From Candidatus Thorarchaeota archaeon (lineage in GTDB: Archaea; Asgardarchaeota; Thorarchaeia; Thorarchaeales; Thorarchaeaceae), in NCBI GenBank assembly GCA_004524445.1, contig SDNP01000013.1, positions 1 to 64,000 of the forward strand: a stretch of DNA of 64,000 bases, in the 5' to 3' direction. The notes beneath the pieces were generated by a model. That model was not told the DNA's origin. It made no database searches and was given only the letters and a program-made list of their open reading frames with translations. The translations under genes were made by a program, and so were the position numbers. Below are positions 34,118 to 63,343 of this stretch, piece after piece; within the stretch, counting starts at the first letter, position 1; each line of letters begins with the position of its first letter.

Positions 34118-35212
34118 ATGATTAATCGTAAGAGAATTCCTAAACTACTCGCTGTGGCAATCACTCTAATGATATTCATATCCGGAGTCCAGTGTTCAGC
34201 AAAGGCTCAAGACACCGAGCTAGACCCCATTGTAGTGATGTACGAAGCCAGCCATGCTCCACAATTTTCTGCAGATAATGCTGAAGACGGGCTCAAATTA
34301 ATGTTGGATATGGTCAACGAGTCAACACGCTACCTTCTGCGGGTTAATCATGAACCCCTCAATGATACAATTCTTGAGGATGTTGATATTCTAATAATAG
34401 CGGAGCCCGATGAGAGTGCTGAGTTTGAACATGAAGAAATTCTTGCCATTGATGAGCTCTTAACTAATGGCAGTTCCCTTTTTATTTTAGGTGACCCCAG
34501 CATCGACCAAAACTCGGCATACTGGAGCAATCAGCAATTTAGAGATTTAGGTGAAAATGTTGCCATCAATACATTTCTAGATCAGATGAACATTACAACA
34601 GTAAGATTTGGTCTTAATGAATCAGCAACTGGTCGAATTTTTGGTGACACCATGTTTGATTACGAGCATTCGTTGAATTCATCGTATCCTTCAATTATTC
34701 AATTCGATTCCACTACGTGGGATACAAGCCACCCGATTTTCAAGGATATTAATACAGTAATATCCATGACGGCAACTCTCAAACCTATTGACCTGGTGAG
34801 TGGAATTGCCCATGGGTATGAGACCTCTTTTGCACAATACCGGCGTGGGCCAAACACATTCGGGAACCTTACGTTTCCCAATATGACTTTGGAAGAATTT
34901 CAAGAAGCTCCGAAATCATATTCCGCCATAAACGGGACATTCCCTCCATGGCTCTCTGCCTTTCGATATGGCAATAGCAGAATTGTTGTGGGAGGCTCCG
35001 CATTGATGTTTACGGGACGTAATCTCGACTTGCCGGAGAGTGAAGAAAAGTGGTTCTATCAGGGAGATAATTCTAGGTTATTCATGAACATTATGAGCTG
35101 GCTTTCATATGACTTTGTCAACCCTGAAAGTCCAATTCTTCCTATGTTGATTATCTCATCAGTAATCTTATTGATTGGGGTAGCATACTACCTCTTCAAG
35201 AAACTGAGATAG
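34118..35212 (+). CDS. Type I membrane protein with GldG/DUF4350/Wbp1(OST48)-like extracytoplasmic domain
   Basis: Signal peptide, YEASH, DILIIAEP...F...E..AI.E.L.NGSSLFILGD, DNSRLFMNIMSWL, C-terminal TM ending KKLR. Confidence 0.65.
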   Translation: MINRKRIPKLLAVAITLMIFISGVQCSAKAQDTELDPIVVMYEASHAPQFSADNAEDGLKLMLDMVNESTRYLLRVNHEPLNDTILEDVDILIIAEPDESAEFEHEEILAIDELLTNGSSLFILGDPSIDQNSAYWSNQQFRDLGENVAINTFLDQMNITTVRFGLNESATGRIFGDTMFDYEHSLNSSYPSIIQFDSTTWDTSHPIFKDINTVISMTATLKPIDLVSGIAHGYETSFAQYRRGPNTFGNLTFPNMTLEEFQEAPKSYSAINGTFPPWLSAFRYGNSRIVVGGSALMFTGRNLDLPESEEKWFYQGDNSRLFMNIMSWLSYDFVNPESPILPMLIISSVILLIGVAYYLFKKLR

Positions 35213-35216
35213 ATAC

Positions 35217-35837
35217 TCACCATTTGGGCAGTTTGAAATCCTGTTCTTGCAGGCTCTCTTGAATTGCTCGTTTCAGCTCTCCCACTCCTTCCTTTTTGCG
35301 AGCTGACATTGCTACAATATGTGGCATTTGCGTTGGAACTGCCTCATGCAACTTGTGGTACAAGAACGCAATTTCTTCATCTCGTCGTCTATGACTCACT
35401 TTGTCAATCTTGTTTGCGGCCACAATTACCTTCGGTGATATCTCCGAGAGAAAAGAATAGAATTCTATGTCTATCGGTATTTCTCCTCTCTCTTCCCAAC
35501 GCTCTACCAGTTCTCTGAAAATTGAAATATCTATAATCAATACGCACAGAGCAATTTGGTCGCTTCGCTTTTCAAGGTTTCTTACAATCCGGGTCTTGGT
35601 GTGATCAATGCGTCTCCTACTTTGGCCCGACATATGCCCAAAACCTGGAATATCGATAAAAAGCACATTACCCAAGTCTATGATTTGCTCGGTTCGAGTA
35701 CTACCAGGTTTTTTTCCGACTCGAATCCGAAGTCCTGTTAAAGCCCTAATTACGCTGCTTTTCCCAACGTTACTTCGGCCTGCAAAAATGACAAGCGGTT
35801 TTCCGGATTCAATCCCAGAAGGGTCGTGTACGCTCAT
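35217..35837 (-). CDS. engB: GTP-binding protein EngB/YsxC
   Basis: GRSNVGKSS, GKKPGST, DIPGFG, NKID. Confidence 0.9.
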   Translation of the reverse strand: MSVHDPSGIESGKPLVIFAGRSNVGKSSVIRALTGLRIRVGKKPGSTRTEQIIDLGNVLFIDIPGFGHMSGQSRRRIDHTKTRIVRNLEKRSDQIALCVLIIDISIFRELVERWEERGEIPIDIEFYSFLSEISPKVIVAANKIDKVSHRRRDEEIAFLYHKLHEAVPTQMPHIVAMSARKKEGVGELKRAIQESLQEQDFKLPKW

Positions 35838-38649
35838 ATTCTTGCTCCGCCTTTGCTATCGAATGCAACAGTGTAAGCCTATCGGTTTGCCCCGGTCTTA
35901 GAACTCTTGATGCAGTTGTCGGACCAATCCCTCTTCCTGCCAATGCCAATAACGCCTTTTTTCCATATTGTGCAACAAGACTCGCGGTAAGTGATGCATT
36001 TTCATATCTCTTTTTCTCCTCACCTGATAACATTTCTCCAGCCTTGACTTTTCGCAATATTGTAGGCAAATTTTTGACCCTCTCTCTGACGGCAGCAATC
36101 ATCCTTGAATTACAGATTGGACAGGTGATCTCATCATCAAGCGTAGATATAGTCCGTACAGAATTCCAGTCATTCTTCGCCATGCAGATCAGTCTAAATT
36201 TTCTAGACAATAATCGCTCTTCCAAGAAACGTAAGACCTCATCTTCATCACTTATCTCCCCCATAACCTCAAAGCGTGTCTTCTCCTCAATGATGAGTCG
36301 GGCAAGCAAGGAGGGTTGTTTCCGTTTAGAAATTACCGTTTGAATCTCTCCCGTGTCGATTTTTTCGAAAACCTCGAGCATACGATTCTCATCAAGCTTC
36401 TCTCTAAGTATTTCCTTCATGGCTTCATCGAAGACTGGTGACGACTCAAAGACATCGATTAGCCGTCTAGATGGTATTTCCTTAAATTTGGCAGTCCTTC
36501 GAATAATTCCCATTCTTCTTCCTACATGAATGAAACGTGACGCAAATGTTTGTGTCTGCCTTACTGCTAATCTCAAAATGGTGGAAATTTGGGCACCTTG
36601 ATAGCTACTAAAGACATCTAGTAAATACTGGGCATCAATTCCGCCGCTGGCGGTGAGAAGGATTCTATAGGGGTCAGTTTCCACAGCCACCTCCTTTCCC
36701 AACCTAGTTGTGAGTAATGCCGCTAGAACAACTCCAATTGTGTCATTTGTTTTCGTTCCGAAAGGGGCGTGAAATACAATCCCGTCCGGGATAGTTTCGA
36801 TTATGAGGTGAGTTTCTGTAGGTATCGAACCTAGTTGTTCCTTCGCAGTTGTGACACTCTCAACGAGATAATTTGATGACGTTTCATTCATCATATAATT
36901 TGTTTCCAACCAACTTGATGCTTCATATGATAAATCCCCAAGACGTTCCCAAACATCGGCCACTTCAGTTGCCACCTCAAATGGAACCGGTATCATTTCC
37001 CCTATCCATCTTGGTGCCTCAACCTGAGTGTCAGTCACAGGAGCACAAAGAACCTCTTCACGTTCTTCATCAATTGATACAACCCGCCAGGGCCTTCCTC
37101 TGATAACGAATATAAATCCGGTTTCTACACTCTCAGTGACAAAATCTTCATCAAGAACTCCTATTCCTGTTCTCGTGGCAATGTCTACAGCTCTGACTTG
37201 TTGCACATCGGGTATTGTACTCAGATGTTCATAGTAGTAGGGCAACGTACCACCATATCGCTTGATTAGGTCGTCTTCTATGAGAAGAAATCGACGTCTA
37301 ACCATGAAGTCCAACAATCTGTCGAGTTCTTTTTCATTAACCTCTCTGAAAGGATATGCGCCTTTTATAATCCTCAGCAATTCACTCTTGCGGATTTCTC
37401 CTGTATCCAGTAACACTCCGCTTACTTGCTGACAAAGGACATCCCAGGTCTTCTGGGGAATATCAGCGGGTTCTACCTTGTTGATTCGAGCTCGTTTCAG
37501 TATTACGGCAGACTCCGTGATATCATCCACATTCATTGTAGAAATGATTATACCTTTGGAAACTCTCCCGACCCGATGTCCCGATCTACCGATTCGTTGA
37601 ACCGCTCTAGATACTTCTCTGGGTGAAGAATACTGGATTACTAAATCCGCCAACCCAATATCTATTCCCAACTCAAGACTAGATGTCGCAATAATTGCCT
37701 TTGACACGCCTCTTTTCAGCCTATCTTCGGCACTCAATCTCACTTCTTTTGAGAGTGATCCATGATGCACATCAAACTCAAACGGTGGTGAAATCGTACG
37801 CATCTTTGCTCCCAAAACCTCTGCAAAGGAACGCGTGTTTGTAAAAACAATCGTGGTCTGGTGGCTTTCAATAAGATCCTTGATTCTTTCTAGCCTAGCG
37901 GCAGAATGTGGTGGATAGGAAATTTGCCTACCTAGTTCTATATGTTGGCTGTTAGGCTGAGGCATTTCCACCTTGAGATGTATTTGCCTCTCTTGATATC
38001 CCGCCCATAATGTATGGATTTTTTTCCCACTGCCTCTAAGAAGGAATGCTATTTCATTGGCATTTCCCACTGTAGCGGATAGTCCAACTCTTTGAATCTT
38101 ATTGCCAATCCAATGGACTAATCGTTCCAATGCAAGTGATAGTTGGGTTCCTCGCTTGCTTCCTGCCAACTCATGTATTTCATCAACAATTACTGCCATA
38201 ACTGAGCGAAGATGATATTTCATCCGTTTTCCAGGTAGAATTGCCTGAAGCGTTTCTGGTGTTGTGATGAGTAAATTTGGAGGCGTTATTGCCTGCTTGC
38301 GTCGGAAATACTGAGTAGTGTCTCCATGGCGTACGGCAACAGTGATTCCCAAGTGCTCACAGAGGTCTTCTATCCTGCGAAAGACATCCCGATTTAATGC
38401 GCGCAGCGGCGTAATATAGAGTATGTATATACCAAATAACTCATCATGTAACTTTCTTTCGTAAAGGTTACTCAGAAGTGGCAATATTGATGCCTCTGTC
38501 TTTCCACTTCCCGTGGGCGCAAGGAGCAGTGCAGAACCTCCACTACGAATCCTGGGAATCGCCTTCTCTTGAATCTCTGTTGGTTTAGTAATGCCTTCTC
38601 TAGTGAGATATTCAACTATGTCCGCATGAAGCGACTCGAATCCATTCAT
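35809..38649 (-). CDS. Lhr-family ATP-dependent helicase
   Basis: APTGSGKT, TPLRALNRD, DEIHE, HHGSLS, QRIGRSGH, C-terminal Zn finger/HhH. Confidence 0.92.
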   Translation of the reverse strand: MNGFESLHADIVEYLTREGITKPTEIQEKAIPRIRSGGSALLLAPTGSGKTEASILPLLSNLYERKLHDELFGIYILYITPLRALNRDVFRRIEDLCEHLGITVAVRHGDTTQYFRRKQAITPPNLLITTPETLQAILPGKRMKYHLRSVMAVIVDEIHELAGSKRGTQLSLALERLVHWIGNKIQRVGLSATVGNANEIAFLLRGSGKKIHTLWAGYQERQIHLKVEMPQPNSQHIELGRQISYPPHSAARLERIKDLIESHQTTIVFTNTRSFAEVLGAKMRTISPPFEFDVHHGSLSKEVRLSAEDRLKRGVSKAIIATSSLELGIDIGLADLVIQYSSPREVSRAVQRIGRSGHRVGRVSKGIIISTMNVDDITESAVILKRARINKVEPADIPQKTWDVLCQQVSGVLLDTGEIRKSELLRIIKGAYPFREVNEKELDRLLDFMVRRRFLLIEDDLIKRYGGTLPYYYEHLSTIPDVQQVRAVDIATRTGIGVLDEDFVTESVETGFIFVIRGRPWRVVSIDEEREEVLCAPVTDTQVEAPRWIGEMIPVPFEVATEVADVWERLGDLSYEASSWLETNYMMNETSSNYLVESVTTAKEQLGSIPTETHLIIETIPDGIVFHAPFGTKTNDTIGVVLAALLTTRLGKEVAVETDPYRILLTASGGIDAQYLLDVFSSYQGAQISTILRLAVRQTQTFASRFIHVGRRMGIIRRTAKFKEIPSRRLIDVFESSPVFDEAMKEILREKLDENRMLEVFEKIDTGEIQTVISKRKQPSLLARLIIEEKTRFEVMGEISDEDEVLRFLEERLLSRKFRLICMAKNDWNSVRTISTLDDEITCPICNSRMIAAVRERVKNLPTILRKVKAGEMLSGEEKKRYENASLTASLVAQYGKKALLALAGRGIGPTTASRVLRPGQTDRLTLLHSIAKAEQEYERTRPFWD

Positions 38650-38903
38650 TTTTTCTTCTGTCCAGCGACGAGATGTCTTCTTTCATTGAGCAAAATATTG
38701 ATATCAGTTCGGATGGTAGCATCAGCATCTTTTGAAATTTTACTCAACTCACTACGGATTCGTCAATGGGCCGTCAATCGATTTTCAGCTTATTTACTAT
38801 GATTTTTACTTGATGAAGATTAGAAATATGAGATACTATGTTCTCGTAGGCTAATTGGAGTAATTCATTAGTTTTGATGGGTTCTCCATCCTTTTCAACT
38901 ACT

Positions 38904-39023
38904 CTATTCTTCCCCGCGTTCTTCTCCATATACAGAATATGCAAGGATTATGACCAAGGCTATGATGCCCAGTGCGTTCAATAGGATAAAGAGCACCGAT
39001 TCGATGAAGGTTGTTGATTGCAT
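38904..39023 (-). CDS. 39-aa single-TM micro-protein, OST4-like (MQSTTFIESVLFILLNALGIIALVIILAYSVYGEERGEE)
   Basis: Manual translation; ATTATAAG TATA about 30 nt upstream; E..L.I..N.LG.........Y pattern. Confidence 0.6.
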   Translation of the reverse strand: MQSTTFIESVLFILLNALGIIALVIILAYSVYGEERGEE

Positions 39024-39090
39024 GGGAATCGCTTCTGCACATTTGGGCTGGTCTTATAATCATTGCTGAAGAGATGGACTTGTACTAGTC

Positions 39091-39345
39091 CTATGCAGTG
39101 CCCGCTTGCCGGGCCTCATAAAATCTATCAATAAATGAACCGTATATATCAACAGGTTCAGTCAGCTCGTTGACTTCGTCGATTGTCATCTCTAGTCCGC
39201 AAGATCCGCACTTGACAGTTGCCATCACTTCTTTACGATACAAGTCAATTTTGATGGCAGTATTTCCGCATGAAGGACAAGGATAAACATCAGGAATTCT
39301 CTTCTGCGGCCTTCTTCTGGATTTTTGTCTTCGTCTTCTTCCCAC
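39091..39345 (-). CDS. elf1: Transcription elongation factor Elf1
   Basis: MGRRRR, CPSC...CGSC, EPVDIYGSFID. Confidence 0.9.
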   Translation of the reverse strand: MGRRRRQKSRRRPQKRIPDVYPCPSCGNTAIKIDLYRKEVMATVKCGSCGLEMTIDEVNELTEPVDIYGSFIDRFYEARQAGTA

Positions 39346-39499
39346 TGTTTGTCACCAAACTTGCCTATTTCACACTTAGAGCTCAAGTCTAGGTAGAAAC
39401 AGAGCAGTTGGACCCTCGAGGGTGTTGATTTAAAGATTATGATACCTATTTAGCTCAAAGAGCAAAGCTTTCATATTAGAGTCCTATGCCGATTGCTTA

Positions 39500-39733
39500 A
39501 TGTCAGATTTATCGAAGAATGCCAAATGCGTCTTGATGATCTTAGAAAGAGAAGGATCACTGACCACATCAGAGATCCTAGAAGTCGCGAAACAAGAACC
39601 TTACTCACAGTACTGTTCAGACTGTGCAGGTGGAGACTCTTTTGTGGCGGCCGCTAATCATTTAGTGAACGAAGGCTTAATCGAGAGGAAGTTTGGCAAA
39701 GGCGGCTACCGCTGGGAACTTGTTAAGGAATGA
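39500..39733 (+). CDS. Small winged-helix-like protein with CxxC
   Basis: LTTSEIL...CSDC...LVNEGLIERKFGKGGYRW; overlaps the desulfurase start. Confidence 0.6.
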   Translation: MSDLSKNAKCVLMILEREGSLTTSEILEVAKQEPYSQYCSDCAGGDSFVAAANHLVNEGLIERKFGKGGYRWELVKE

Positions 39734-40980
39734 TTAGAATGAACAAATGGGAAACAATCAGAGAAGAGTTTCCGGCTCTTCAGCGTACAATAAATGGCAG
39801 GAAGCTGGTGTATCTTGACAGTGCATGCATGTCATTGAAGCCTAATTCAGTAATTGAGGCGATGGACGAATACTACATGAAGTTTCCCGCGTGTGGTGGC
39901 AGAAGTATTCATCACCTTGGGGAGGAGGTTTCCAATGCCTATTCAGCGGCAAGAGATAAATTTGCCCGCTTCATAAATTCGCCCGAACCAAAACAAGTCA
40001 TATGGACCCGAAATGCCACCGAGTCATTGAATATAGTTGCACGATGTATTGACCTTCCCAAAAAATCAAAGATAGTTACCACAACTCTTGAGCATCATAG
40101 CGGGTCTCTCCCGTTTGTTGAACGGGCTCAGAGAGATAGTCTTGATATCGAGATTATTCCAGCTAATGATGATGGAACCTTCGATATTGAGGACTGGAAG
40201 AAGGCCATCGATAACAAAACAAGACTGGTATCCGTAGTGCATTCATCCAACGTCACGGGAACTGTGGCCCCTCTAAGAGAGATAATTGAGATTGCACATG
40301 ATAGAGGCGCACTTGTTGTGTCAGACGATGCACAATATGCCCCCCACCACCCCTTGAATGTTAGGAAATTAGATGTTGATTTTTCCGCCATATCGGTACA
40401 CAAGATGTGCGGTCCTACAGGCATGGGTGTGCTATATGGCAAGGAAGAACACTTGGATGAAATGGATATGCTCCTTCACGGTGGAGATACTGTCAGCAAT
40501 GTCCGTCTTGAAAATGGAAAAATAGTGCCCGAATATCTACCTCCTCCGGAGAAATATGAAGCAGGTTTGCAGAATTATGCTGGAGCAATAGGAGCGGGGG
40601 CCGCAGCTGAGTTCCTTCAATCTATTGGAATGAAGGCTATCGAAAAGCACGAACGCTCCATCTTGACTGATGTTTTATCCCAGATGCAAGATATGGAACA
40701 TGTGCATATTATTGGGACAGATAACATCGACATAAAGACCGGTCTTGTGACTTTCTATGTCGACACAGTCGAATCTGCCCATGATGTTGCTACATTTCTT
40801 AGTGAAGAATTTGCAGTAATGATTCGAAGTGGGGCACATTGTACCCATCCATTCCATTATCAATTAGGTCTCTCTTTGACAAAGGGTACCGCTCGGGCAA
40901 GTTTCTATCTGTATAATAATAAGCAAGACGCCAAGATGTTCATTGATGGTCTAAACACGCTAATAGATGCAAGTACTTAG
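39730..40980 (+). CDS. Cysteine desulfurase (SufS/CsdA-like)
   Basis: YLDSA, EHHS, DDAQ, SVHKMCGPTG, RSGAHC, RASFYLYN. Confidence 0.9.
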   Translation: MIRMNKWETIREEFPALQRTINGRKLVYLDSACMSLKPNSVIEAMDEYYMKFPACGGRSIHHLGEEVSNAYSAARDKFARFINSPEPKQVIWTRNATESLNIVARCIDLPKKSKIVTTTLEHHSGSLPFVERAQRDSLDIEIIPANDDGTFDIEDWKKAIDNKTRLVSVVHSSNVTGTVAPLREIIEIAHDRGALVVSDDAQYAPHHPLNVRKLDVDFSAISVHKMCGPTGMGVLYGKEEHLDEMDMLLHGGDTVSNVRLENGKIVPEYLPPPEKYEAGLQNYAGAIGAGAAAEFLQSIGMKAIEKHERSILTDVLSQMQDMEHVHIIGTDNIDIKTGLVTFYVDTVESAHDVATFLSEEFAVMIRSGAHCTHPFHYQLGLSLTKGTARASFYLYNNKQDAKMFIDGLNTLIDAST

Positions 40981-42755
40981 CCCAATAGATCCTCTATACT
41001 TGCCTTCATCTTCTTCACTTCTTCCACCGGATTGGCGAAGGAAAGACTATTCGCCCCAATGTCTAAGGATTCTCTATATCGATTAACACGTCCTCTAACA
41101 ACAACATAGGTTCCTAACATCTTGTCCATCTTCTCATCAATCGGTGCTCGTTCATTACTGGTCTTCTGAATTAGATCTTGAGCCTCTTCAGCCGTCATCT
41201 CCAGAAGCTTCTCACCTGCTTCCCCAAAAAGTGTGGTTCTAATCGAACCAGTGCCATCATCCACCGTTATTTTGTATAGCATTCGATATTCCGGTTGTTC
41301 CACTTCTTCGCCGCAACTCTTGCAGGTGTAGTTCCCTCTCTCTCCCACATCGAGTTTTTTCTTACAGCTTGGACATGCCGGATATACGGGACTAATTTGC
41401 CCTACTCCCACGATTATGCCACACACTTCAACATTCTGTCCTTCAACTGCTTCGTCAATGTCAACAATAGCTGTCCTATCTGCTGCCCCCGTTGGTCTTG
41501 AAGGCGCCTCCGGAAGCTCCAAATCCTCAATCTCAGAATCATCCGGATCGATTGATATGTCAGCAAATTTTCCTACTCCAAATTCTACGGCATCTCTGTA
41601 CCCCTTCTTTACATATCCGTGTTCAATACGGATTATGTCTCCCTCTTTCAAACTCTTAATCTTTTCAACATCATCATCCCAGAATGCTGCACGGATAGAC
41701 TGTCCAGACTCATCCACCACTATGATATTCTGTACTCGTCCAGTTGAATCATCACGATCGAACTCAGTAACGGGGAATATGCGGAAGACTTTTCCCTCCA
41801 AATCAACATCCCTCATGCCCACATTCATCTCATCTATAGTCTTTCTGCCAAGAGGTTCTCTGCGAGGTGTTTCAACCGACACCGCATCAATCTCCTCATC
41901 GAGATTTCTCTCAACTTTTGAAGAGCGCCCACTATGAACTTCCAGTTCGTCTGATCGTCCCTTTCTCGTGTAAGCCCCCCTTATTCGAATTACCTCTCCC
42001 TCTTCAATACCATCCATTTGCTCAGCAAGGTCATCCCAGAAGACTAACCGAATGCTCCCAGTTTCATCAGCGACAATCATACTCATTACTTTCCCCTCAC
42101 TACTGTCTGACTTACGAGTGAATGTAGAAAGCGGGAATACCCTCTTGGTTTCAACAGTCAGGGTGACATCATATTGTCTTTCCTCTAGGCTTTCAATCTT
42201 CAACGAATCCGGTGCATCAATATCAAAGTCCAATTCGAGCTCCTCTATTTCATAGTCTTCCAGTATGCGCAGCCCGCCCATTCTACCAAGATTCAGTTCG
42301 ATTTGATCTCGAAGCCCTTTCTTTGCATATGCACTTCTGAGTTGTACTACATCACCGATGCTTACAGCCCCCTCAGAAACTGCTTTTGTGACATCATCCC
42401 ACAATGCCACTCGAATGCTTCCAGTCTTATCTGCTACAACCATGCTAGCAACTTTGCCTTCTCCGGCATCCTTCCGGGAGAACTTACGAACCGGCCCAAT
42501 ATGAACAACTTTAGCTGTAAGTGTTACATTTCGAGTGTTCTCTGAAATGTCCTCAATCTTTTGGCGCGATCTCGGAGAAACCTGTTGCAAATCAATGCCC
42601 AATTCACGTGCCACAATCATTGCTGCAGACTCTTCATTGATAATTTCAGGACCCAATTCTTGCCGTTTTTCCTCAATCAAATTGAGGACTTCTTTTCTAT
42701 CATACTCCGGCAAATGCTTTAGTATTGCTTGAATGGTTTCCTCCAGTGTTATCAT
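40977..42755 (-). CDS. rpa: Replication protein A (multi-OB fold plus Zn finger)
   Basis: Repeated D.TGSIR..LWDD OB folds; CPSC...CKSC. Confidence 0.9.
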   Translation of the reverse strand: MITLEETIQAILKHLPEYDRKEVLNLIEEKRQELGPEIINEESAAMIVARELGIDLQQVSPRSRQKIEDISENTRNVTLTAKVVHIGPVRKFSRKDAGEGKVASMVVADKTGSIRVALWDDVTKAVSEGAVSIGDVVQLRSAYAKKGLRDQIELNLGRMGGLRILEDYEIEELELDFDIDAPDSLKIESLEERQYDVTLTVETKRVFPLSTFTRKSDSSEGKVMSMIVADETGSIRLVFWDDLAEQMDGIEEGEVIRIRGAYTRKGRSDELEVHSGRSSKVERNLDEEIDAVSVETPRREPLGRKTIDEMNVGMRDVDLEGKVFRIFPVTEFDRDDSTGRVQNIIVVDESGQSIRAAFWDDDVEKIKSLKEGDIIRIEHGYVKKGYRDAVEFGVGKFADISIDPDDSEIEDLELPEAPSRPTGAADRTAIVDIDEAVEGQNVEVCGIIVGVGQISPVYPACPSCKKKLDVGERGNYTCKSCGEEVEQPEYRMLYKITVDDGTGSIRTTLFGEAGEKLLEMTAEEAQDLIQKTSNERAPIDEKMDKMLGTYVVVRGRVNRYRESLDIGANSLSFANPVEEVKKMKASIEDLLG

Positions 42756-42971
42756 ATTCAATCTCATTCCTGAGGCAAGATGGTGGTGTACCTCACTACT
42801 AGTGATAATCGTATATGCTTTAAAGCTCACTACTCGTAAAAAGAGAGAAACACAATAAGTGAAGAAAACTTACAGGCCGGCATGGCAACTCTAAAAAACA
42901 GACACCCATATCAAGAATCAAAACGTCCGAAAGATAGAATATGAATCCTACAATAACAAGAGTGAATAGAA

Positions 42972-51598: not shown

Positions 51599-51739
51599 GT
51601 GGGATTCATATTTTGGTTCTATCCAACATTGATAATCATGTTGTTTTCCTCGTTGCTTTGTTTGCCCGCCCGAGCACATATCCTAATGCAAACCAAGACA
51701 TTTTTCTCCAAAGTAATGCAAGTTTCAAGAGTGAATACC

Positions 51740-52084: not shown

Positions 52085-52286
52085 GATACACTACAACCTC
52101 TCTAGCCCAATCTCCAAGGTTCTCCTCGCCCACCACTTTCTCCAGATACTCTTCCCATCCAATCCCATATGCCCGTTTCCAAGCCGCAAATGCCCACTCC
52201 AGACTATGTTTCGCTTCGGCATGATACTCGCAAAGACTACATTGTTCTAGAACAGGCCTTGAGCATATATCACACTCTTTGGTCAC
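52062..52286 (-). CDS. Small Zn-binding protein coupled to topA
   Basis: CDIC...C..H, then WKRAYG.WEEYL; overlaps the topA stop. Confidence 0.65.
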   Translation of the reverse strand: MTKECDICSRPVLEQCSLCEYHAEAKHSLEWAFAAWKRAYGIGWEEYLEKVVGEENLGDWAREVVVYLIEQNDS

Positions 52287-54397: not shown

Positions 54398-54504
54398 ATT
54401 ATATCCTCTCTAGGTGTTGGATACACGATTTTGGGTGGTACACTTCTGCATATCACGATATTCTTAAAAGCAGACCGCCGAAGGAAGCGTCTTGTGGTCC
54501 TAAC

Positions 54505-54936
54505 ATGAAGCTATGGTGGCCAAGAAGAATCATAAGACCTCGAGTCAGACTCAAGAGACCGAGATTTACCACTCCAACTCGACCTCCAGATGTGGTTCTA
54601 TTTGGAGTCCTGTTTATCGTCGTACTATTCATCCTTGGCGGTAATATCTATACCTTAGTTAGGTCCCCGCCAGCTATTGCTGGTGGTTCGGGTGGTTCTC
54701 CAATCCTGATTTCTCCTGGCATCGATTCACAATTAGGTTTGGAAGGTATTGTTGCCTCCGTCGTCATTCTAATGGGAACGATAGGATTGGGACTGATCTA
54801 CTACGCTTCAAAATATGTATTTCAACCAGGTTATGCCAACCGTCTTCTCTTGCTTGGCATGTTACTCAGTGGACTTTCTTTCCTCATATTTGGCTATCTC
54901 TTTGGGTACAAATTGGGTGCCTTTTCGCAAGGCTAA
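54505..54936 (+). CDS. OSTC/DC2 (OST3/OST6 TM-domain) homolog
   Basis: FILGGNIYTLVRSPP, Q.GLEGIVAS, GTIGLG, NRLLLLG, C-terminal YKLG. Confidence 0.8.
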   Translation: MKLWWPRRIIRPRVRLKRPRFTTPTRPPDVVLFGVLFIVVLFILGGNIYTLVRSPPAIAGGSGGSPILISPGIDSQLGLEGIVASVVILMGTIGLGLIYYASKYVFQPGYANRLLLLGMLLSGLSFLIFGYLFGYKLGAFSQG

Positions 54937-54962
54937 GATGACAATAATGGGGTAGTTCTTTG

Positions 54963-55676: not shown

Positions 55677-55711
55677 TGAATCACCTTCAGAAGAATTACT
55701 CGACACCTATA

Positions 55712-56563
55712 TCATTCCGCTCTTCTCAGCTTCTTGCCAATCCTACATGCCACTGCTGTTTCCTTCACGTCGTGGGTCCTCACGATATCTGCCCCATTCG
55801 CTACTGCAATACTAGTCACCGCAATACTGCCCTCCAATCTATCACTAGGGTCCTTCTGGTCAAGAAAGAAGCCGATGAACGCCTTCCGGGAAACTCCAAT
55901 TAAGACGGGATGACCAAGGTATGTGAATCTCTCAAGTTCTCGGATTATGTCAAAATCTATGTTCGGGGCTTTTCCAAATCCTATACCGGGATCTACTATT
56001 ATCTTCGTCGGCTCTATATGTGCTCTCTTGGCGATATGAAGGCTCCTTTTCAATGAATGTAATGACTGCTTTATTGAGGTACATGTACTTGCACAGGAAG
56101 ACATCACCACGACAGGTACATTTCCATCTGAGATTATCTGCGCCATGTCTTTATCCGCTTGTAGCCCTGACACATCGTTTATCATGGAGGCCCCCAGTTC
56201 TAAGGCGCGCTCAGCCACTTGAGAAGATGTTGTATCAACAGAGATAGGCACGTTCACAGCGTCAGTAAGCACCTCCAAAGCATGTTCGATTCTTTCGATT
56301 TCAACTTCCGTTGAAACTTTTTTGGCATCATAGTAGGCAGCCGGTGCAGTGGAACTCCCACCAATATCTATAATATTTGCTCCTTCGTTTACCATTTCTC
56401 TGGCTTTTGCAACTATTTCCTCGCTTTGGACCTCTACTGACTCAGCATAGAATGACTCGGGTGAGATATTTAGAATCCCCATTACACGCACTGGAAATTC
56501 TTCACCTATGCCAAGTGTGCCAACGAGCACGGAATTCCTTAACAAACACAACAACTCCAACAA
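55712..56563 (-). CDS. folP: Dihydropteroate synthase
   Basis: MGILNISPESF, IIDIGG, INDVSG, DPGIGFGK, SRK, RTHDV. Confidence 0.93.
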   Translation of the reverse strand: MLELLCLLRNSVLVGTLGIGEEFPVRVMGILNISPESFYAESVEVQSEEIVAKAREMVNEGANIIDIGGSSTAPAAYYDAKKVSTEVEIERIEHALEVLTDAVNVPISVDTTSSQVAERALELGASMINDVSGLQADKDMAQIISDGNVPVVVMSSCASTCTSIKQSLHSLKRSLHIAKRAHIEPTKIIVDPGIGFGKAPNIDFDIIRELERFTYLGHPVLIGVSRKAFIGFFLDQKDPSDRLEGSIAVTSIAVANGADIVRTHDVKETAVACRIGKKLRRAE

Positions 56564-56635
56564 GACGAGGAACCCATAGAATGAAATAAAACCTACTTAC
56601 TGTTCTCCTGACCTACTGATACCAGGTGAATTCCA

Positions 56636-57781
56636 ATGAATAACAATTTCAGACGAACACAGCTTTATGAATGGCACAAGGAGCATGGCGATGTAATTCC
56701 TTTTGCTGGCTGGGAGATGCCCGTACGCTACACCGACATTCGAGAGGAGCATATGGCGGTACGAGATGCTGTTGGAATATTTGATACTTCACACATGTAT
56801 CGCTTCTTTATTGAAGGCCCCGACGCAGCGGATTTTCTGCAGACTCTTACTACAAACAATGTTCACAAGCTATCTGTAAATGATGGTCATTATTCAACGT
56901 GTTTGAATGAGAACGGCGGTACCCATGACGATTTGATGCTTTACCGAGTTGGTGAAGAGAAATACATCTGGGTTACCAATGCGGCAAATGGGCCCAAAAT
57001 TTGGAAGCACATGAATGCTCACACCGATGATTTTGAAGTAAGCGTAAATGACCGTTCAAGAGAGATAATAATGGTTGCAGTTCAAGGTCCAAAAGCCGTA
57101 GCACTATTATCCAAATTGGCCGGATCTGATGTTGCAGAATACTCACGCTTTACCGCAAATAGGGTCAAATTGGCTGGATTTGATACTTACCTTTGTAGAA
57201 CCGGATATACGGGTGAAGATGGCGGTGAGCTGTTGGTGCTGGACACGCCCTTAACAGAGAACGGCAAAGAACGGGCAATCAGCTTCTGGAATACGCTATT
57301 GAAACAGGGTAAGGAGTTTGGTATCAAACCCTGTGGGCTTGGAGCTCGTGATTCCACACGGCTCGAGGCTGGATTTGTCCTGTATGGACACGAACTTGAT
57401 GAAGAAACCTCACCGATTGAAGCGAGAATTCCCTATGCTGTAAAGTTCAAGGTCGACCCTCACTATATTGGATATGATGTGGTCAAGACACAAAAGAAGG
57501 AGGGTGTCGAACGAACACGCATTGGTTTTGAGATGATTGACAGAGGCATACCCCGAGAGGGCTATGACATCCTACTATCTGGCTCAAAAATTGGAGTGAC
57601 CACAAGTGGCGGTCTCTCACCTGTCCTCAATAAGGGAATTGGAATGGGATATGTTCCGCCAGATACGGTTGAAGAGGGTGATACTGTTGAGATTGATATC
57701 AAAGGCAGGGTCCGCAAGGCCAAGGTTACCAAATGGCCATTCTATGATTCTACCGAGTATGGCGCCACACGAACCGACTGA
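56636..57781 (+). CDS. gcvT: Glycine cleavage system T protein
   Basis: FAGWEMP, FDTSHM, TGYTGEDG, GARDSTRLEAG. Confidence 0.96.
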   Translation: MNNNFRRTQLYEWHKEHGDVIPFAGWEMPVRYTDIREEHMAVRDAVGIFDTSHMYRFFIEGPDAADFLQTLTTNNVHKLSVNDGHYSTCLNENGGTHDDLMLYRVGEEKYIWVTNAANGPKIWKHMNAHTDDFEVSVNDRSREIIMVAVQGPKAVALLSKLAGSDVAEYSRFTANRVKLAGFDTYLCRTGYTGEDGGELLVLDTPLTENGKERAISFWNTLLKQGKEFGIKPCGLGARDSTRLEAGFVLYGHELDEETSPIEARIPYAVKFKVDPHYIGYDVVKTQKKEGVERTRIGFEMIDRGIPREGYDILLSGSKIGVTTSGGLSPVLNKGIGMGYVPPDTVEEGDTVEIDIKGRVRKAKVTKWPFYDSTEYGATRTD

Positions 57782-57838
57782 CAGTTAGATGCATTTAAAG
57801 GGACTGAACAATCCCATTATATTCGTTGGTGGAAAAAG

Positions 57839-58237
57839 ATGTCCGAAGGTCAGGACGTAAGAAAAGACAGGTCTTATAGTAAGGAGCACGAATGGGCTAA
57901 AGTCGATGATGGAATTGTTGTAATCGGCATCAGTGATTACGCTCAGAACTCTCTGCATGAGATTACATATGTAGAAGTCACAGAGGTTGGAACAAAAGTC
58001 GAAAAGGGAGATGAATGCGGTCTGGTCGAGTCTATGAAAGCATCATCTGACATTTATACGCCAGTAAGCGGCGAAATAGTCGAAGTCAACGATAAACTTG
58101 AAGACGCTCCAGAGATTGTGAATGAATCGCCATATGACGAAGGTTGGTTACTGAAAATCGAACCGTCCAATCTTGACGATGATATGAATTCACTCATGAG
58201 TGCAGAAGAGTACGAAGAGTTCATTGAAGATCTTTAG
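57839..58237 (+). CDS. gcvH: Glycine cleavage system H protein
   Basis: HEW, GISDYAQ, VESMKAS lipoyl Lys, PYDEGW. Confidence 0.96.
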   Translation: MSEGQDVRKDRSYSKEHEWAKVDDGIVVIGISDYAQNSLHEITYVEVTEVGTKVEKGDECGLVESMKASSDIYTPVSGEIVEVNDKLEDAPEIVNESPYDEGWLLKIEPSNLDDDMNSLMSAEEYEEFIEDL

Positions 58238-58463
58238 AATAATACATCTGATCAATGCTTGGGACAATCGTCTGTAAAGAATACCACGGTTGTCCGAAGC
58301 TAACCTATTTTTTCTGGTCCGACCTAAAACAACCAAATGCTATTTGGCAGTTCATTTCGTCCCTCTTTTCTGGTTGGTACAGAAATGAATCTATCCGAAA
58401 CCCTTTTAGCGAATACGAGATTGCTCCGCTTAGCTTCGAGTCGGAATGGAGAGAGCACACCGA

Positions 58464-61223
58464 ATGTCCAAATTCAATAGATTCAAACGGTCCGCGGGTC
58501 GTTTCCTGAAAAGGGTCTTCCGAAGGCCAAAGGCAGAAATTAGTCGTGGGTCCGTAATGATAATGGTGGCATTAGCAATCATTTTCATATCTGCACTGGC
58601 TCTAAGGCTGGAACCATTAATCAATGCTCAGCCTGTTGTAAGAGCTTTTGACCCCTGGTTCCAGCTGCGAGTGACAGAATATGTGGCGGAAAATGGGTAT
58701 GCTGCATATTTCTCTTGGTATGATTATACAACATGGGTGCCTTTTGGACGTGATATGACACAAACTAGCTATGTCGGTGTGCCATTTACCACTGCTTTCT
58801 TCTATTGGGTCGTAAATCTATTCGGAATCGAAGTATCCGTAACCTATGTTGCAATAGTTCTCCCTGCATTCATGGGCGCACTGACCACTATTGTTGCATT
58901 CTTCTTCGGACGAGAACTATACAACAATACTGTTGGATTGTTGAATGCCCTATTCATGGCTTTCATGCCAGCATTTATCCAGAGAACAATAGTTGGATTC
59001 TTTGACAATGAGAGCATAGGAATCTTTGCGATTGTACTTACCATGTACCTATTCATTCGTAGTATTCGACGTGGTTCAAGCATTTCGGGAGTCGCTGCAG
59101 GTTTGTCCCTAGGGTATCTACTTGCGTCATGGGGTGCTGCTGATTTCATGTTGGGCCTTTTTGCTCTTTATGGCCTTATTATGCTCATGATAGGGCGATA
59201 CAGCAAACGATTGCTGAGCTCTTATCTATTGACATTGGCTCTAGGTATGTTCATTGGATGTCTTGTGCCGCGAAATGGTTTCGAGAGCCTTACGTCGTTT
59301 ACATACCTTGCCCCGATGGGTGTAGGAATTCTTCTTGCGGGGTATGAAGTCTGGCTGAGAATAGGTTCACTTAGGGACGCCACTGCGACAAGACTTGCAC
59401 CTCACTTGAAGTCAATTCTGGTTGGAATTATCGCCCCAGTCGCAGGAATGATCGCTTATGTGATTTACTCGAGTGGATTAGACCTCGCGATTGTTACCAC
59501 AGCATCGAATCCCTTTACAGTTATTGGAAATAAATTCCTTAGTGTAATTAATCCATTTTACCGTCTTGATCAACGGATATTTGCATCTGTGGCTGAGCAC
59601 TTACCAAGCCCATGGGGAAGTTTCTATCAGACATTGTTGATACTAATCTTTTTCCTGCCTCTAGGAATGTACTTCTTATTCCGAAGAGGTCGAGATGAGG
59701 ACTATTTGATTCTCCTCTTTGGCATCACAGCTGTATACTTTGCAGGAAGCATGATTCGACTTAGTTTGATTCTTGCGCCTGCAGCTGCAATTCTTTCAGG
59801 TATAGCAGTTAACGGAATATTGAGCCCATTCGCCAAGGTTGTAACTCAGGACTCGGTCTTTGAGCGAAGAAGATTCAGAATGAGTTCATCTCTGACATCC
59901 GAGCATGCCATTGCCGCATTCGGATTTGTTGGTCTGCTTCTATCTGTAAATCTGATTCTTGGCGTTTCTTATGTGACGAACTCGGTGAGCAATCCCGAAT
60001 TTGCGCCGTCTCAGATCACATCCGACCGCCAGTTTGCTGATTGGCAGACGTCGATGAACTATATCAGGAACGTTCTACCAGATGATGCAGTTATTGCTAG
60101 TTGGTGGGATTACGGCTACTGGATAAATGGGGCTGGTGACGGACAAACGATTGTTGACAATGCCACTTGGAATCGTACGCAAATTGCCTTAATGGGTTAC
60201 GCACTGATGGCGCTCAATTTAACAGAGTCACTAAAGACGTTCAAGCTCTGGAATGCCTCACATGTATTGGTCTATTGGGGTCATACCAGTTCCGGTGTTG
60301 GCGGTGATGAAGGTAAATGGCCCTGGATGGTAAGAATTGCGGAGGACCGCTTTGGCAGCTCAGTCATCGATGATGCAACTTATCTTGGTGACAATCCTGC
60401 TACCGACCAGGAGGAGTCAGAATACACCCAGGACGCATTCTTCCAGTCCACTATATACAAGCTTATGATGTACAACGAGCCAACATCATTAGAATCCGGG
60501 CAACAGAGGGGACTAACTAATGAGCGCTTGGGCTGGGATAGGCAGTACATCGAAAATCCAGATAAGCGCTGGCTTAATAATATTCCACAGACCCTTCACG
60601 GTGCCTTCAAAGAAGCCTTCATCAGCTATGCATATGGCTTTGTCAAGATTTACGAGATTGACTATACAATGCTTGAGCAGTACAACAACCGTACCAGTTC
60701 AGACTGGCGGCTGAGACAAGACTCACTATCTCAAGTATCAATTGATGGCAGCCTTTCCCCGCAAGAGGAGGACTTTCAGAGTTTCAATACGGTATTTGGT
60801 GGTGGCTACGACGCTACTGTCTACACACGGGCGAACTCAACCCATGTCTATTATGGGATACAGATGGATAACTACACTCTTGGAGAAGACGCCTTCGGAC
60901 TGCAGATATCTCCAATCGATACTACTTCAGTATCAGACATTCGAGTTGTTAACTACCAAGGGCAGGAGTATTTCGATGGACATATCGACTATTATGGCGA
61001 CTGGGTGGCTGATGCCCAAAGTGCAAACGAATCTGAGGCGGCAACTGGTGAAAATGTGATAGAGTTCCTGCTACCGTTGGAATCCGATGATCCAGATGAT
61101 ATACATCTTGCCCCTGGAAATAAGTACCAAATACGCTTCCTATTCTGGAACAATATGCAAACTGGTGAACCAACACTCAATAGTGACTGGACGGTCTTCT
61201 GGGTTCCTGTAGAGCTACATTAG
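58464..61223 (+). CDS. aglB: Oligosaccharyltransferase AglB/STT3 with C-terminal DOMON/CBM9-like extension
   Basis: FDPWF, FFDNE, SVAEH, WWDYG, DNATWNRT, DEGKWPWMVRI, VKIYE. Confidence 0.95.
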   Translation: MSKFNRFKRSAGRFLKRVFRRPKAEISRGSVMIMVALAIIFISALALRLEPLINAQPVVRAFDPWFQLRVTEYVAENGYAAYFSWYDYTTWVPFGRDMTQTSYVGVPFTTAFFYWVVNLFGIEVSVTYVAIVLPAFMGALTTIVAFFFGRELYNNTVGLLNALFMAFMPAFIQRTIVGFFDNESIGIFAIVLTMYLFIRSIRRGSSISGVAAGLSLGYLLASWGAADFMLGLFALYGLIMLMIGRYSKRLLSSYLLTLALGMFIGCLVPRNGFESLTSFTYLAPMGVGILLAGYEVWLRIGSLRDATATRLAPHLKSILVGIIAPVAGMIAYVIYSSGLDLAIVTTASNPFTVIGNKFLSVINPFYRLDQRIFASVAEHLPSPWGSFYQTLLILIFFLPLGMYFLFRRGRDEDYLILLFGITAVYFAGSMIRLSLILAPAAAILSGIAVNGILSPFAKVVTQDSVFERRRFRMSSSLTSEHAIAAFGFVGLLLSVNLILGVSYVTNSVSNPEFAPSQITSDRQFADWQTSMNYIRNVLPDDAVIASWWDYGYWINGAGDGQTIVDNATWNRTQIALMGYALMALNLTESLKTFKLWNASHVLVYWGHTSSGVGGDEGKWPWMVRIAEDRFGSSVIDDATYLGDNPATDQEESEYTQDAFFQSTIYKLMMYNEPTSLESGQQRGLTNERLGWDRQYIENPDKRWLNNIPQTLHGAFKEAFISYAYGFVKIYEIDYTMLEQYNNRTSSDWRLRQDSLSQVSIDGSLSPQEEDFQSFNTVFGGGYDATVYTRANSTHVYYGIQMDNYTLGEDAFGLQISPIDTTSVSDIRVVNYQGQEYFDGHIDYYGDWVADAQSANESEAATGENVIEFLLPLESDDPDDIHLAPGNKYQIRFLFWNNMQTGEPTLNSDWTVFWVPVELH

Positions 61224-61233
61224 ATCAGAAGGC

Positions 61234-61256
61234 GGCGGCTTTTCTTTCAAGCCGCC
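61234..61256. terminator. Hairpin between convergent aglB and nop10
   Basis: GGCGGCTT...AAGCCGCC. Confidence 0.5.
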
Positions 61257-61275
61257 CCATCTCCACTTTTAATAA

Positions 61276-61452
61276 TCAGTCGGATTCCAGTCTTTTTGCC
61301 TTTCTCTTGGCTTCGCGTCTGTATTTTCCATACTTGTCCTGAGGAGAAAATCTCGGAGGAGCGGGACCGGTTACTTGTCCCCCACAATAAGGGCATCCCT
61401 TTTGTTCGAGGGTGTATTTGTTGCATTCGGTGCATTTGAATAAAGGCGGCAT
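61276..61452 (-). CDS. nop10: Nop10 (58 aa; absent from the ORF track)
   Basis: MPPLFKCTECNKYTLEQKGCPYCGG...PPRFSPQDKYGKYRR; follows aIF2alpha. Confidence 0.93.
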   Translation of the reverse strand: MPPLFKCTECNKYTLEQKGCPYCGGQVTGPAPPRFSPQDKYGKYRREAKRKAKRLESD

Positions 61453-61461
61453 ATGAGCTAC

Positions 61462-62256
61462 CTACTTGCGAGTAAACTTGAAAGTACCATCTTTCTTCTC
61501 AATAATTTTTTTAACGGAGTCCAGTATCTCATCTAGCAAGTCCTCTGCTTCTTTATAATCCGGACTCACGATTCTAAGTTTGTATCTTGGGGAGCCAAGT
61601 GTATAGATCTCGACAGATGATTTATCCTGTTTTTTTCCGACTTCAAGTCCTTTTTTGAGGCCCTCTTTTATCACACTAACCCCTTCGGCTCCTGGAACAG
61701 TAATGGTCATTTCGCCATCTATTTCAATGGAAGGAATCTCTATTCTATCCTCTGCAAGTTCAGCTACCTGCTTAAGGTATTTTTTGGGCGCATCCACATC
61801 ATCGAAAACAGAAACATCTCCGTCTGCAGCTGCTTCAAGGCCCTTGTATATCTCTCCAAAATACTCTTGAATTGGCCATCCAATCTTCTCATAAGCCTCT
61901 TCCAGAGTCATATCATTTTCCTTAGCAACGAGCTCCAACAACCTCTCTGCTCTTTGTGCCCTCTTCCATTCTTCATTTTTTACTCTCTTGGCCTCTGAAG
62001 AAACTCGGCGAAGTGAACAATCAATATGTCCCTTGACTTCATCAACCTTAAGAACTCGTACAACCACCCGTTGGTTTTCTGCAATATGATTACGAATGTT
62101 CCTAACCCATGTGCTCGAGACCTCTGAAATATGAATGAAGCCTTCCTTGTCATCATATTCAGGAAGTGTAACATATGCTCCGTATGGGGCTACCTTAGTT
62201 GCTACTGCAACTACATATTCGTCAGGACTCGGCCATTCTGCTCGTTTCAAAACCAT
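61462..62256 (-). CDS. eif2a: Translation initiation factor aIF2 alpha
   Basis: S1 domain GAYV.L.EY...EGFIHISEV, KGHIDCSLRRV, GSPRY. Confidence 0.96.
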   Translation of the reverse strand: MVLKRAEWPSPDEYVVAVATKVAPYGAYVTLPEYDDKEGFIHISEVSSTWVRNIRNHIAENQRVVVRVLKVDEVKGHIDCSLRRVSSEAKRVKNEEWKRAQRAERLLELVAKENDMTLEEAYEKIGWPIQEYFGEIYKGLEAAADGDVSVFDDVDAPKKYLKQVAELAEDRIEIPSIEIDGEMTITVPGAEGVSVIKEGLKKGLEVGKKQDKSSVEIYTLGSPRYKLRIVSPDYKEAEDLLDEILDSVKKIIEKKDGTFKFTRK

Positions 62257-62294
62257 CTCGGGAACCTCCACTAGGACCTCTGGATTTCAGAATC

Positions 62295-62504
62295 CTATTG
62301 TAACGTTTCTACCTCTCTTGCGATTGGCTGGAGCTTTGTCTTCCCGCCAACAGGTTTTGCCAGAACTTTATCACACTTTAGACATTTTACTTCTGTAGAA
62401 GCATTGCCGAAAATAATCTGTTCATTCTCACAGTCTAGGCATTTTACCTTCAAGAATCGTGAGTTGGGTTGTTGAACTATCTCTCCTTTGGTCACTATTA
62501 CCAC
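62295..62504 (-). CDS. rps27e: 30S ribosomal protein S27e
   Basis: PNSRFLKVKC.DC.NEQIIF...C..C...PVGGK. Confidence 0.95.
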   Translation of the reverse strand: MVIVTKGEIVQQPNSRFLKVKCLDCENEQIIFGNASTEVKCLKCDKVLAKPVGGKTKLQPIAREVETLQ

Positions 62505-62650
62505 CAGTTTGTTCGAGGTTTCAGTACTGCCTTCACGGCAGAAAAAGGCCCAAACATATGGACACTTTAACGTCGGAACAGGGTTGCATTATAACTCTAT
62601 CGACACGCCATTTCGTTTGACGCCCTCAAGAACGTCTATGGGCTTATCTG

Positions 62651-62932
62651 CTAAACTCTGGAAATTTCAACCTTTTTGAGTCTCATACCATCGGTCTGAA
62701 TGGTATATCCACATTCTCGACATTTTAATTTGAGTACCGTCTTCTTTGTTGTCTTGGCGAATCGTTTCTGAATCTGCTTTGGAAATGAACCATACCCCTT
62801 TGTCTTTCTCTTCATCCGTCGAGCACCTTGGGCCATTGGGCTCTGTGCCCCCTTTTTGTAAATACTTGTGCTATGCTCAGTATGCGTCTTGCACTTGGGG
62901 CAATATTTGTTCATTACGGCAGGGACCTTCAT
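62651..62932 (-). CDS. rpl44e: 50S ribosomal protein L44e
   Basis: MKVP...YCPKCKTHT...GYG...KTTKK...CREC. Confidence 0.95.
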   Translation of the reverse strand: MKVPAVMNKYCPKCKTHTEHSTSIYKKGAQSPMAQGARRMKRKTKGYGSFPKQIQKRFAKTTKKTVLKLKCRECGYTIQTDGMRLKKVEISRV

Positions 62933-63121
62933 CATCAATTCACCTTTGCATGGAACGTGTTCGCTAAAGCTCTCGCAGTCGGTTGGCTTCTTAATCTTAT
63001 CGTTTTGCACAAAGGTAAGATCGAGATACCTAGACATGCGTTAGAATTTGAAAGACATTATGACGGTATTAATTCAAAGCATGGTATCAAAACTAGCCAG
63101 AACGAACACACCTTTTAGTTA

Positions 63122-63343
63122 CTAGCCCCAAAATTGAAGTTGTTGCCCAATATGGGAAACCACGGTAATGATTACTAAAATAGCTGCCATGACGACAACA
63201 AGGGTTGGTCCAACTTTTATTCCGGGAGTTTCATCTTCGAAGAACCTAATGAGCCCAGCGCCACCGGAGGGCATAGGACCGGAATCTCGGCTGCTACTCC
63301 GTCTTGTCTTTTTCTTCTTCTTCCTCTTAGCGGACTTTGGCAT
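63122..63343 (-). CDS. Sec61beta
   Basis: GAGLIRFFEDETPGIKVGP plus C-terminal TM. Confidence 0.9.
   Translation of the reverse strand: MPKSAKRKKKKKTRRSSSRDSGPMPSGGAGLIRFFEDETPGIKVGPTLVVVMAAILVIITVVSHIGQQLQFWG

Follow-up and report, generated by a model that had tools for sequence, protein, structure and literature searches.

Background

Several subunits of the eukaryotic oligosaccharyltransferase (OST) have homologues in Asgard archaea. Those of STT3, Ost1 and Ost3/6 had been reported before the study of Eme et al. 2023 (PMC10307638), which added Ost2, Ost4, Ost5, Swp1 and Wbp1 and found Ost4 and Ost5 in most Asgard classes, and Wbp1, Ost2 and Swp1 in Heimdallarchaeia only. Carilo et al. 2024 (PMC11417166) expressed and modelled parts of the Asgard translocon, and according to a 2026 preprint further structural clusters from Asgard archaea fall together with OST48. 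Here we report on a stretch of 64,000 nucleotides from a Candidatus Thorarchaeota archaeon (GenBank assembly GCA_004524445.1, contig SDNP01000013.1, positions 1 to 64,000; referred to below, at its full length, as the window), in which genes for STT3, a DC2/OSTC-like protein, a micro-protein of 39 amino acids (aa), a 364-aa protein with a GIFT domain and Sec61beta occur within 30 kb. In an original prediction, made from the letters of the sequence, the micro-protein and the GIFT protein had been taken as OST4-like and Wbp1-like, and the set as an archaeal equivalent of the catalytic STT3A-OST4-DC2 subcomplex of the eukaryotic co-translational OST.

We consider it probable that the window, taken as a whole, is best explained as a housekeeping block that includes STT3 and a DC2-type partner acting as a small OST, together with a micro-protein that is left unplaced and a paralogous GIFT protein. 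Specifically, the most likely arrangement is a small OST of the cytoplasmic membrane in which STT3 is paired with the DC2-like protein and probably also with an Ost5/TMEM258-like protein encoded on another contig. The DC2-like protein, with its basic N-terminal segment and three helices, would contribute to keeping STT3 beside SecY/Sec61, like DC2 in human OST-A. The 39-aa gene would encode a conserved membrane micro-protein expressed from its own promoter, while the GIFT gene would encode a surface-exposed glycoprotein, a predicted paralogue of the Asgard Wbp1/OST48 relatives, and the closeness of the five genes would come from inherited gene order. The homologies were computed, and the assembly and docking, which we infer from eukaryotic structures, represent the most likely arrangement.

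Results and discussion

Source genome and genes of interest

The source genome comprises 2.79 Mb in 64 contigs and is 90% complete, the window being one contig (C30); this completeness applies to all negative results for the genome given below. The gene map is based on a listing of open reading frames (ORFs) and on Pfam scans across 33-64 kb of the window. All five ORFs named in the original prediction were found again at their positions, and these are given here together with the promoter-like element that precedes one of them:

34118-35212, plus strand: 364-aa type-I membrane protein with a GIFT domain (PF09822 and AlphaFold2 (AF2) fold)
38904-39023, minus strand: 39-aa single-helix micro-protein (conservation and coding pattern)
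39053-39069, minus strand: promoter-like element TCAGCAATGRTTATAAG, conserved upstream of the micro-protein gene
54505-54936, plus strand: DC2/OSTC-like membrane protein, 143 aa (PF04756)
58446-61223, plus strand: STT3, 925 aa (PF02516)
63122-63343, minus strand: Sec61beta, 73 aa (PF03911)

STT3 is of the eukaryotic type

The STT3 gene is present in a single copy according to a search of the whole genome, and its product matches PF02516 with an E-value of 2.7e-46 (159.4 bits, cut-off 24.5). The closest relatives with solved structures are human STT3A (1.4e-91, residues 38-636), human STT3B (1.9e-82) and yeast Stt3 (4e-77), while the archaeal and bacterial enzymes align to the C-terminal core only (Pyrococcus AglB 4e-5, PglB 5e-4). 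The catalytic and substrate motifs known for this family are a first DxD-type motif, DNE, an SVSE-type loop, WWDYG and the DK motif, and the translation contains FDPWF, FDNES, SVAEH, WWDYGYW, DNATWN and DEGKWPWM, which as read from the sequence is the full eukaryote-style complement. Because the full set is present the enzyme is predicted to be, very probably, active, and its alignments place it in the eukaryotic type rather than in the archaeal AglB or the bacterial PglB type. The earlier call of an STT3-like gene is hence confirmed by the Pfam match, the motifs, the single copy and human STT3A as the top relative. As a phylogenetic label "STT3A-like" was dropped, STT3A scoring merely 30 bits above STT3B; the split into STT3A and STT3B is a later eukaryotic duplication. 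Approximately 240 C-terminal residues (after position 686; 60500-61223 in the window) are without counterpart in the solved eukaryotic STT3 structures. Elsewhere in Asgard archaea the STT3 frames range between 727 and 1235 aa, i.e., the C-terminal tail is variable.

The short Ost3/6-family protein is DC2/OSTC-like

The 143-aa protein matches PF04756 (OST3_OST6) with an E-value of 4.5e-9 (36.6 bits, cut-off 27), and only the membrane region of the profile is covered (positions 183-285 of 294). Used as a single sequence its top match among solved structures is human OSTC (6s7o_H; 7.4e-4), nearly end to end, and a profile built from 30 homologues aligned with the same chain at an E-value of 3e-7 (12-136 of 140 against 15-142 of 149), while no chain of Ost3, Ost6, Tusc3 or MagT1 among the solved structures was matched by the family profile at E ≤10. 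The homologues in Thorarchaeota show 63-78% identity and are almost all 137-143 aa long, lengths that support the ATG at 54505. The protein is without a thioredoxin domain and has three helices, which in the AF2 model span residues 28-53, 71-103 and 108-136. A Foldseek search with this model returned OSTC in the first row with a weak E-value of 0.33, which counts only as consistent with the sequence matches. These comparisons suggest a specific likeness to DC2/OSTC for the short Ost3/6-family protein of Asgard archaea, and the DC2-like assignment made earlier is well supported.

The family is present in 239 of the 301 sampled Asgard genomes, with frames mostly of approximately 140-190 aa among the matches listed, and it is presumably the family that has been described from Asgard archaea as "Ost3". 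The thioredoxin part of the OST3_OST6 profile has two matches in the genome, both separate small frames of approximately 150 aa; a split Ost3 was ruled out for the stronger of these, a cytoplasmic thioredoxin without a membrane helix. The DC2-like match of one Thorarchaeaceae genome (G009:C15:60063-60470) lies inside an open frame of 336 aa, which could represent a fusion or mere upstream read-through.

STT3 might instead work alone in the manner of AglB, with the DC2-like protein having some other membrane role. A single-subunit AglB is the usual arrangement, indeed the rule, in archaea, and in two genomes of one Asgard family (G107 and G097, family f13) STT3 lies >400 kb from the DC2-like gene. 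We find this quite improbable given the conservation of the DC2-like protein across Thorarchaeota and its full-length match to OSTC, whose only known role is that of an OST-A subunit, and given that the STT3 belongs to the eukaryotic type, which forms complexes.

Sec61beta and other OST subunits in the genome

Of the components that the small OST of STT3 and the DC2-like protein would work with, Sec61beta is encoded in the window. The 73-aa product, a translocon subunit of SecG/Sss1 type, is tail-anchored and exceeds the PF03911 cut-off (2.7e-13, 50.2 bits, cut-off 27), in agreement with the earlier assignment, and its gene adjoins that for L44e, an adjacency kept in three other Thorarchaeaceae genera. 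Outside the window a two-helix protein of approximately 70-78 aa (C20:18493-18672, minus strand) resembles Ost5/TMEM258, its score of 27.6 bits being just over the Pfam cut-off. In the genome Ost2/DAD1 (PF02109) was not found at significance (best match E 0.08), nor was ribophorin I, and for Swp1 (PF05817) nothing was obtained at E ≤1 in a search that had no positive control.

A conserved micro-protein and its relation to OST4

Of 86 other Thorarchaeia genomes, 85 have an open frame that matches the 39-aa peptide, and the gene order Elf1-peptide-Lhr is kept in all 30 loci examined. The orthologues (n=30) are 36-41 aa long and have one helix. They share five invariant residues (G19, A22, L23, Y29 and G33) and an acidic C-terminal tail. 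Per-site differences at the first, second and third codon positions are 0.32, 0.13 and 0.63, respectively, i.e., the pattern of a coding sequence. The element TCAGCAATGRTTATAAG, 30-46 nucleotides upstream of the ATG and with a TATA box at -36 to -31, is nearly the same in all 30 orthologous loci, and GATTCC is conserved immediately 5' of the ATG; together the two have the appearance of a strong promoter dedicated to this gene and followed by a short leader. On the basis of this conservation the ORF is judged to be a genuine conserved gene, and a promoter-bearing gene for a 39-aa membrane protein conserved throughout Thorarchaeia adds to the published inventory.

Whether the peptide is related to OST4 was approached with profile searches and with profile-profile alignment. 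At E ≤10 PF10215 (Ost4) had no match in the genome or in 27 members of the 39-aa family, and the family profile, searched against the PDB at the same threshold, brought up no chain of OST4. The human OST4 sequence was verified against PDB 2LAT/6S7O before comparison, and in the comparison with the family profile hhalign then placed LLNALGIIALVIILAY in register with FANMLGVSLFLLVVLY, a pairing that is also apparent by eye, with a probability of 0.9% and a score of 10.7. For human OST4, 24 of 200 full shuffles and 81 of 200 shuffles of the helix core attained this score; for yeast OST4 the counts were 26 and 38, each of 200. Human against yeast OST4, used as positive control, scored 32.7, a value that none of 150 shuffles attained. 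Since 10.7 falls inside the shuffle distribution while the control passes, the comparison gives no support for homology between the 39-aa protein and OST4, and the name "OST4-like", for which the original prediction had itself proposed a homology test, reflects size and a single helix only. A search of the ESM Atlas with the peptide gave unnamed clusters only, all below 0.85.

Outside Thorarchaeaceae the family has marginal matches only, several of which are short ORFs with LILAY and an acidic tail. ORFs of this kind, 38-45 aa long and with a hydrophobic helix that ends in LILAY followed by the acidic tail, were seen in other Asgard lineages (G256, G282, G142, G107 and G112), one LILAY-type ORF outside Thorarchaeaceae again being located upstream of Lhr. 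The Thorarchaeia micro-protein may have its distant counterparts among them.

The 39-aa peptide could still be an undetectably diverged OST4, wedged between the helices of STT3 and those of the DC2-like protein in a three-subunit, OST-A-like subcomplex. It shares length and single helix with OST4, the in-register pairing of LLNALGIIALVIILAY with FANMLGVSLFLLVVLY is the alignment chosen by hhalign itself, and the gene is under purifying selection, near-universal in Thorarchaeia and equipped with its own promoter. The LILAY ORFs of other Asgard lineages, including the one upstream of Lhr, would fit as well, as would the Ost4 homologues described for most Asgard classes (Eme 2023, PMC10307638), to which the 39-aa family may or may not belong. 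Against this, neither PF10215 nor a PDB chain of OST4 was matched at E ≤10, and the hhalign score is at shuffle level in a comparison where human and yeast OST4 recognise each other. Moreover, the tail is acidic and that of OST4, on the cytosolic side, is basic, no His follows the conserved Tyr, and the conserved neighbours of the gene are Elf1 and Lhr, not STT3. Such a trio is possible, if doubtful. Under the explanation that we prefer the peptide is a conserved membrane protein that is not assigned to the small OST, and it may be a functional analogue of OST4.

A GIFT protein paralogous to the Asgard Wbp1/OST48 relatives

In Pfam the 364-aa protein matches PF09822 (ABC_transp_aux/GldG; 1.4e-9) and, weakly, IFT52_GIFT (0.018), and OST48_N (PF03345) had no match on it at E ≤10. 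The AF2 model (pLDDT 77.8) has one alpha/beta domain between a signal-like N-terminal helix and a C-terminal helix (336-363) with a KKLR tail, i.e., a type-I topology. Comparison of this model with solved structures (VIA structure comparison) gave the highest Z scores for the GIFT domain of IFT52 (22.4 and 21.8), followed by human OST48 (19.7, 19.1 and 19.0; the best of these covers residues 40-303 with 226 aligned and a root mean square deviation (rmsd) of 2.9), site-1 protease (18.4) and yeast Wbp1 (17.8, 17.6 and 16.9), with ordinary GATase1 domains at 16.1 or lower. As far as the model goes the fold-level likeness to the N-domain of OST48 appears real. With the domain ending near residue 333 and the C-terminal helix beginning at 336, there is no space for the middle lumenal domain of OST48.

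Remote relatives of the GIFT protein have a mixture of sub-threshold matches to GldG, IFT52 and OST48_N, the last in 23 of 80. Among the 301 Asgard genomes OST48_N scored above cut-off in seven, none of them from Thorarchaeaceae. Five of the genomes with an OST48_N gene were searched with the GIFT family and four gave a match (none in G088); in three of the four (G099, G196 and G232) the best match is a gene separate from the OST48_N gene. These separate genes indicate that the GIFT protein is a paralogue, not an orthologue, of the Asgard Wbp1/OST48 relatives, a status that we infer from gene content and that is in keeping with published reports of Wbp1 from Heimdallarchaeia only.

Two weak OST48_N matches elsewhere in the genome were set aside: one is an amidohydrolase-type enzyme, by eye imidazolonepropionase-like, and the other a large surface protein with multiple GIFT domains. 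The superfamily is represented in this genome also by a large secreted protein of >684 aa with at least two GIFT/GATase1-like repeats, which runs off its contig (G000:C51:3476-5529).

The GIFT protein contains nine N-X-S/T sequons, compared with 3.3 expected, and seven of these are retained in at least 38 of 39 relatives. Judged from these sites it is probably N-glycosylated and surface-exposed, and likely to be a substrate of STT3.

If the GIFT protein instead had the role of Wbp1, STT3, the DC2-like protein and an OST4-like peptide would make up with it a four-part OST coupled to Sec61. The structural likeness to human OST48 (226 residues, Z 19.7, rmsd 2.9) and yeast Wbp1 (Z 17.8) is in line with this, and so are the type-I topology with C-terminal helix and short basic tail as in OST48, the sub-threshold OST48_N matches in 23 of the 80 remote relatives and the further OST48-grouping clusters of the 2026 preprint. 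We regard it as very improbable: the protein has no OST48_N match and is closer to IFT52 (Z 22.4), the middle domain cannot be accommodated, genomes with an OST48_N gene carry a separate, closer counterpart of the GIFT protein, and the thorarchaeal genome yielded no Swp1 or ribophorin I and no significant match to Ost2/DAD1. In addition, Wbp1 homologues were reported from Heimdallarchaeia only (PMC10307638), and the seven conserved sequons are equally consistent with a glycoprotein substrate. Of the "Wbp1-like" call, membership of the fold superfamily and the membrane topology are retained, while the OST48_N match, the middle domain and orthology are not, and the homology test that had been named for it gave a GIFT paralogue without the OST48 middle domain in a genome where Ost2/DAD1 and Swp1 were not detected. 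Placing Wbp1 in the STT3 subcomplex is also at odds with the eukaryotic enzyme, in which Wbp1 belongs to subcomplex III, apart from the STT3-Ost4-Ost3/DC2 subcomplex (PMC10307638).

The genes lie in an old syntenic block

The five genes of interest are spread over both strands with 17 unrelated housekeeping genes interspersed, in block order as follows:

downstream of the GIFT gene: GTPase and Lhr helicase (Pfam/ORF map)
after the micro-protein gene: Elf1, then cysteine desulfurase, RPA, the PolD large subunit (DP2) and a CBS protein
before the DC2-like gene: CarS, RadB-like ATPase, XPD and topoisomerase
between the DC2-like gene and STT3: MptE, DHPS, GcvT and GcvH
between STT3 and Sec61beta: eIF2alpha and L44e

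This two-strand layout amid Lhr, Elf1, RPA, PolD DP2, XPD and others is as first described, i.e., the genes are dispersed among core genes and do not form an operon. From the GIFT gene to Sec61beta the order and orientation of 22 genes are kept in three of the five Thorarchaeaceae genera sampled, the 39-aa gene having been placed in this count by its coordinates from the Thorarchaeia open-frame search; a fourth genus keeps 21 of the 22 (without Lhr) and the fifth has a split block. The neighbours CarS, RadB, XPD, DHPS, GcvT/H, eIF2alpha, L44e, Lhr, Elf1, RPA and CBS recur in rearranged form in two other Asgard families. One of these families has the DC2-like gene, CarS, RadB, XPD, STT3, eIF2alpha and L44e; the other has RadB, CarS and the DC2-like gene, then DHPS, GcvT, GcvH, STT3, eIF2alpha and L44e, and in a further block the peptide, Lhr, GTPase, RPA, Elf1, GIFT, CBS and Sec61beta. 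XPD and GcvT are conserved in the block as much as the OST candidates, so proximity adds little. The comparison of gene orders suggests that the grouping is an old syntenic housekeeping block, neither an operon nor a sign of co-regulation, and the earlier caution that proximity alone is weak evidence is borne out by this inherited block of 22 genes. The block mixes genes for replication and repair, folate, glycine cleavage, translation and membrane proteins, and synteny this long-lived is unusual for archaea.

Weighing the proposed small OST

Several points weigh against a small OST with an unplaced peptide and a mere paralogue set in an inherited block. First, the AF2 model of the DC2-like protein is of low confidence (pLDDT 65). 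Second, peptides as short as the micro-protein can diverge past detection, and it could be an OST4 counterpart. Third, the modelled GIFT domain resembles the N-domain of OST48 strongly (Z 19-20), well over generic GATase1. Finally, the gap between STT3 and the DC2-like gene is 3.5-6.3 kb in three Asgard families, the only hint of linkage, and this spacing could reflect some functional linkage beyond inheritance.

With these points in mind, a minimal OST-A-like co-translational unit at SecY/Sec61 can be pictured, in which STT3 and the DC2-like protein are combined with the micro-protein as a highly diverged or convergent counterpart of OST4. We think this unlikely; were it so, a translocon-docked OST would predate eukaryotes, and with such a trio complex beside the Sec channel, translocon-coupled N-glycosylation in the style of the endoplasmic reticulum would already have been present in Asgard archaea. 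As to the original prediction of an archaeal equivalent of the catalytic subcomplex, the part that stands is the homologues of two members of the STT3A-OST4-DC2 trio, i.e., STT3 and DC2/OSTC, whereas the OST4 and Wbp1 labels do not.

Comparison with known systems

Among the GIFT proteins, i.e., the N-terminal domain of IFT52 (5FMR/5FMS), the N-domain of OST48/Wbp1, GldG (PF09822) and the fourth domain of site-1 protease, the fold is common to the 364-aa protein (Z 17-22). Like OST48 the protein is anchored by a C-terminal helix; in contrast to OST48 it has a single domain, without the middle domain, and belongs to a clade separate from the OST48_N-positive Asgard genes.

With human OST-A, STT3A-OST4-DC2/OSTC (6S7O, 8B6L), and yeast subcomplex II, Stt3-Ost4-Ost3/6 (6EZN, 6C26), the thorarchaeal set shares a eukaryotic-type STT3 with all motifs. 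Further likenesses to OST-A are a three-helix partner that is without a thioredoxin domain and aligns with OSTC end to end, and the presence in the genome of a single-helix protein whose family members are 36-41 aa long. However, the thorarchaeal STT3 carries approximately 240 extra C-terminal residues, and the micro-protein has no detectable homology to OST4 and an acidic tail where that of OST4 is basic. Ribophorin I, Ost2 (best E 0.08) and Swp1 were also not found in the thorarchaeal genome.

The closest described system is the published Asgard OST set, with the same families in the same phylum, and the repertoire seen here (STT3, the Ost3/6-family protein and Ost5; no Wbp1, Ost2 or Swp1) fits its distribution. 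The window as such confirms the published inventories and makes three small additions, i.e., the DC2/OSTC specificity of the short Ost3/6-family protein, which the papers examined do not single out, a Thorarchaeia-wide 39-aa protein, and a GIFT protein that is a predicted Wbp1 paralogue. The result is a further example of the published toolkit with modest added detail.

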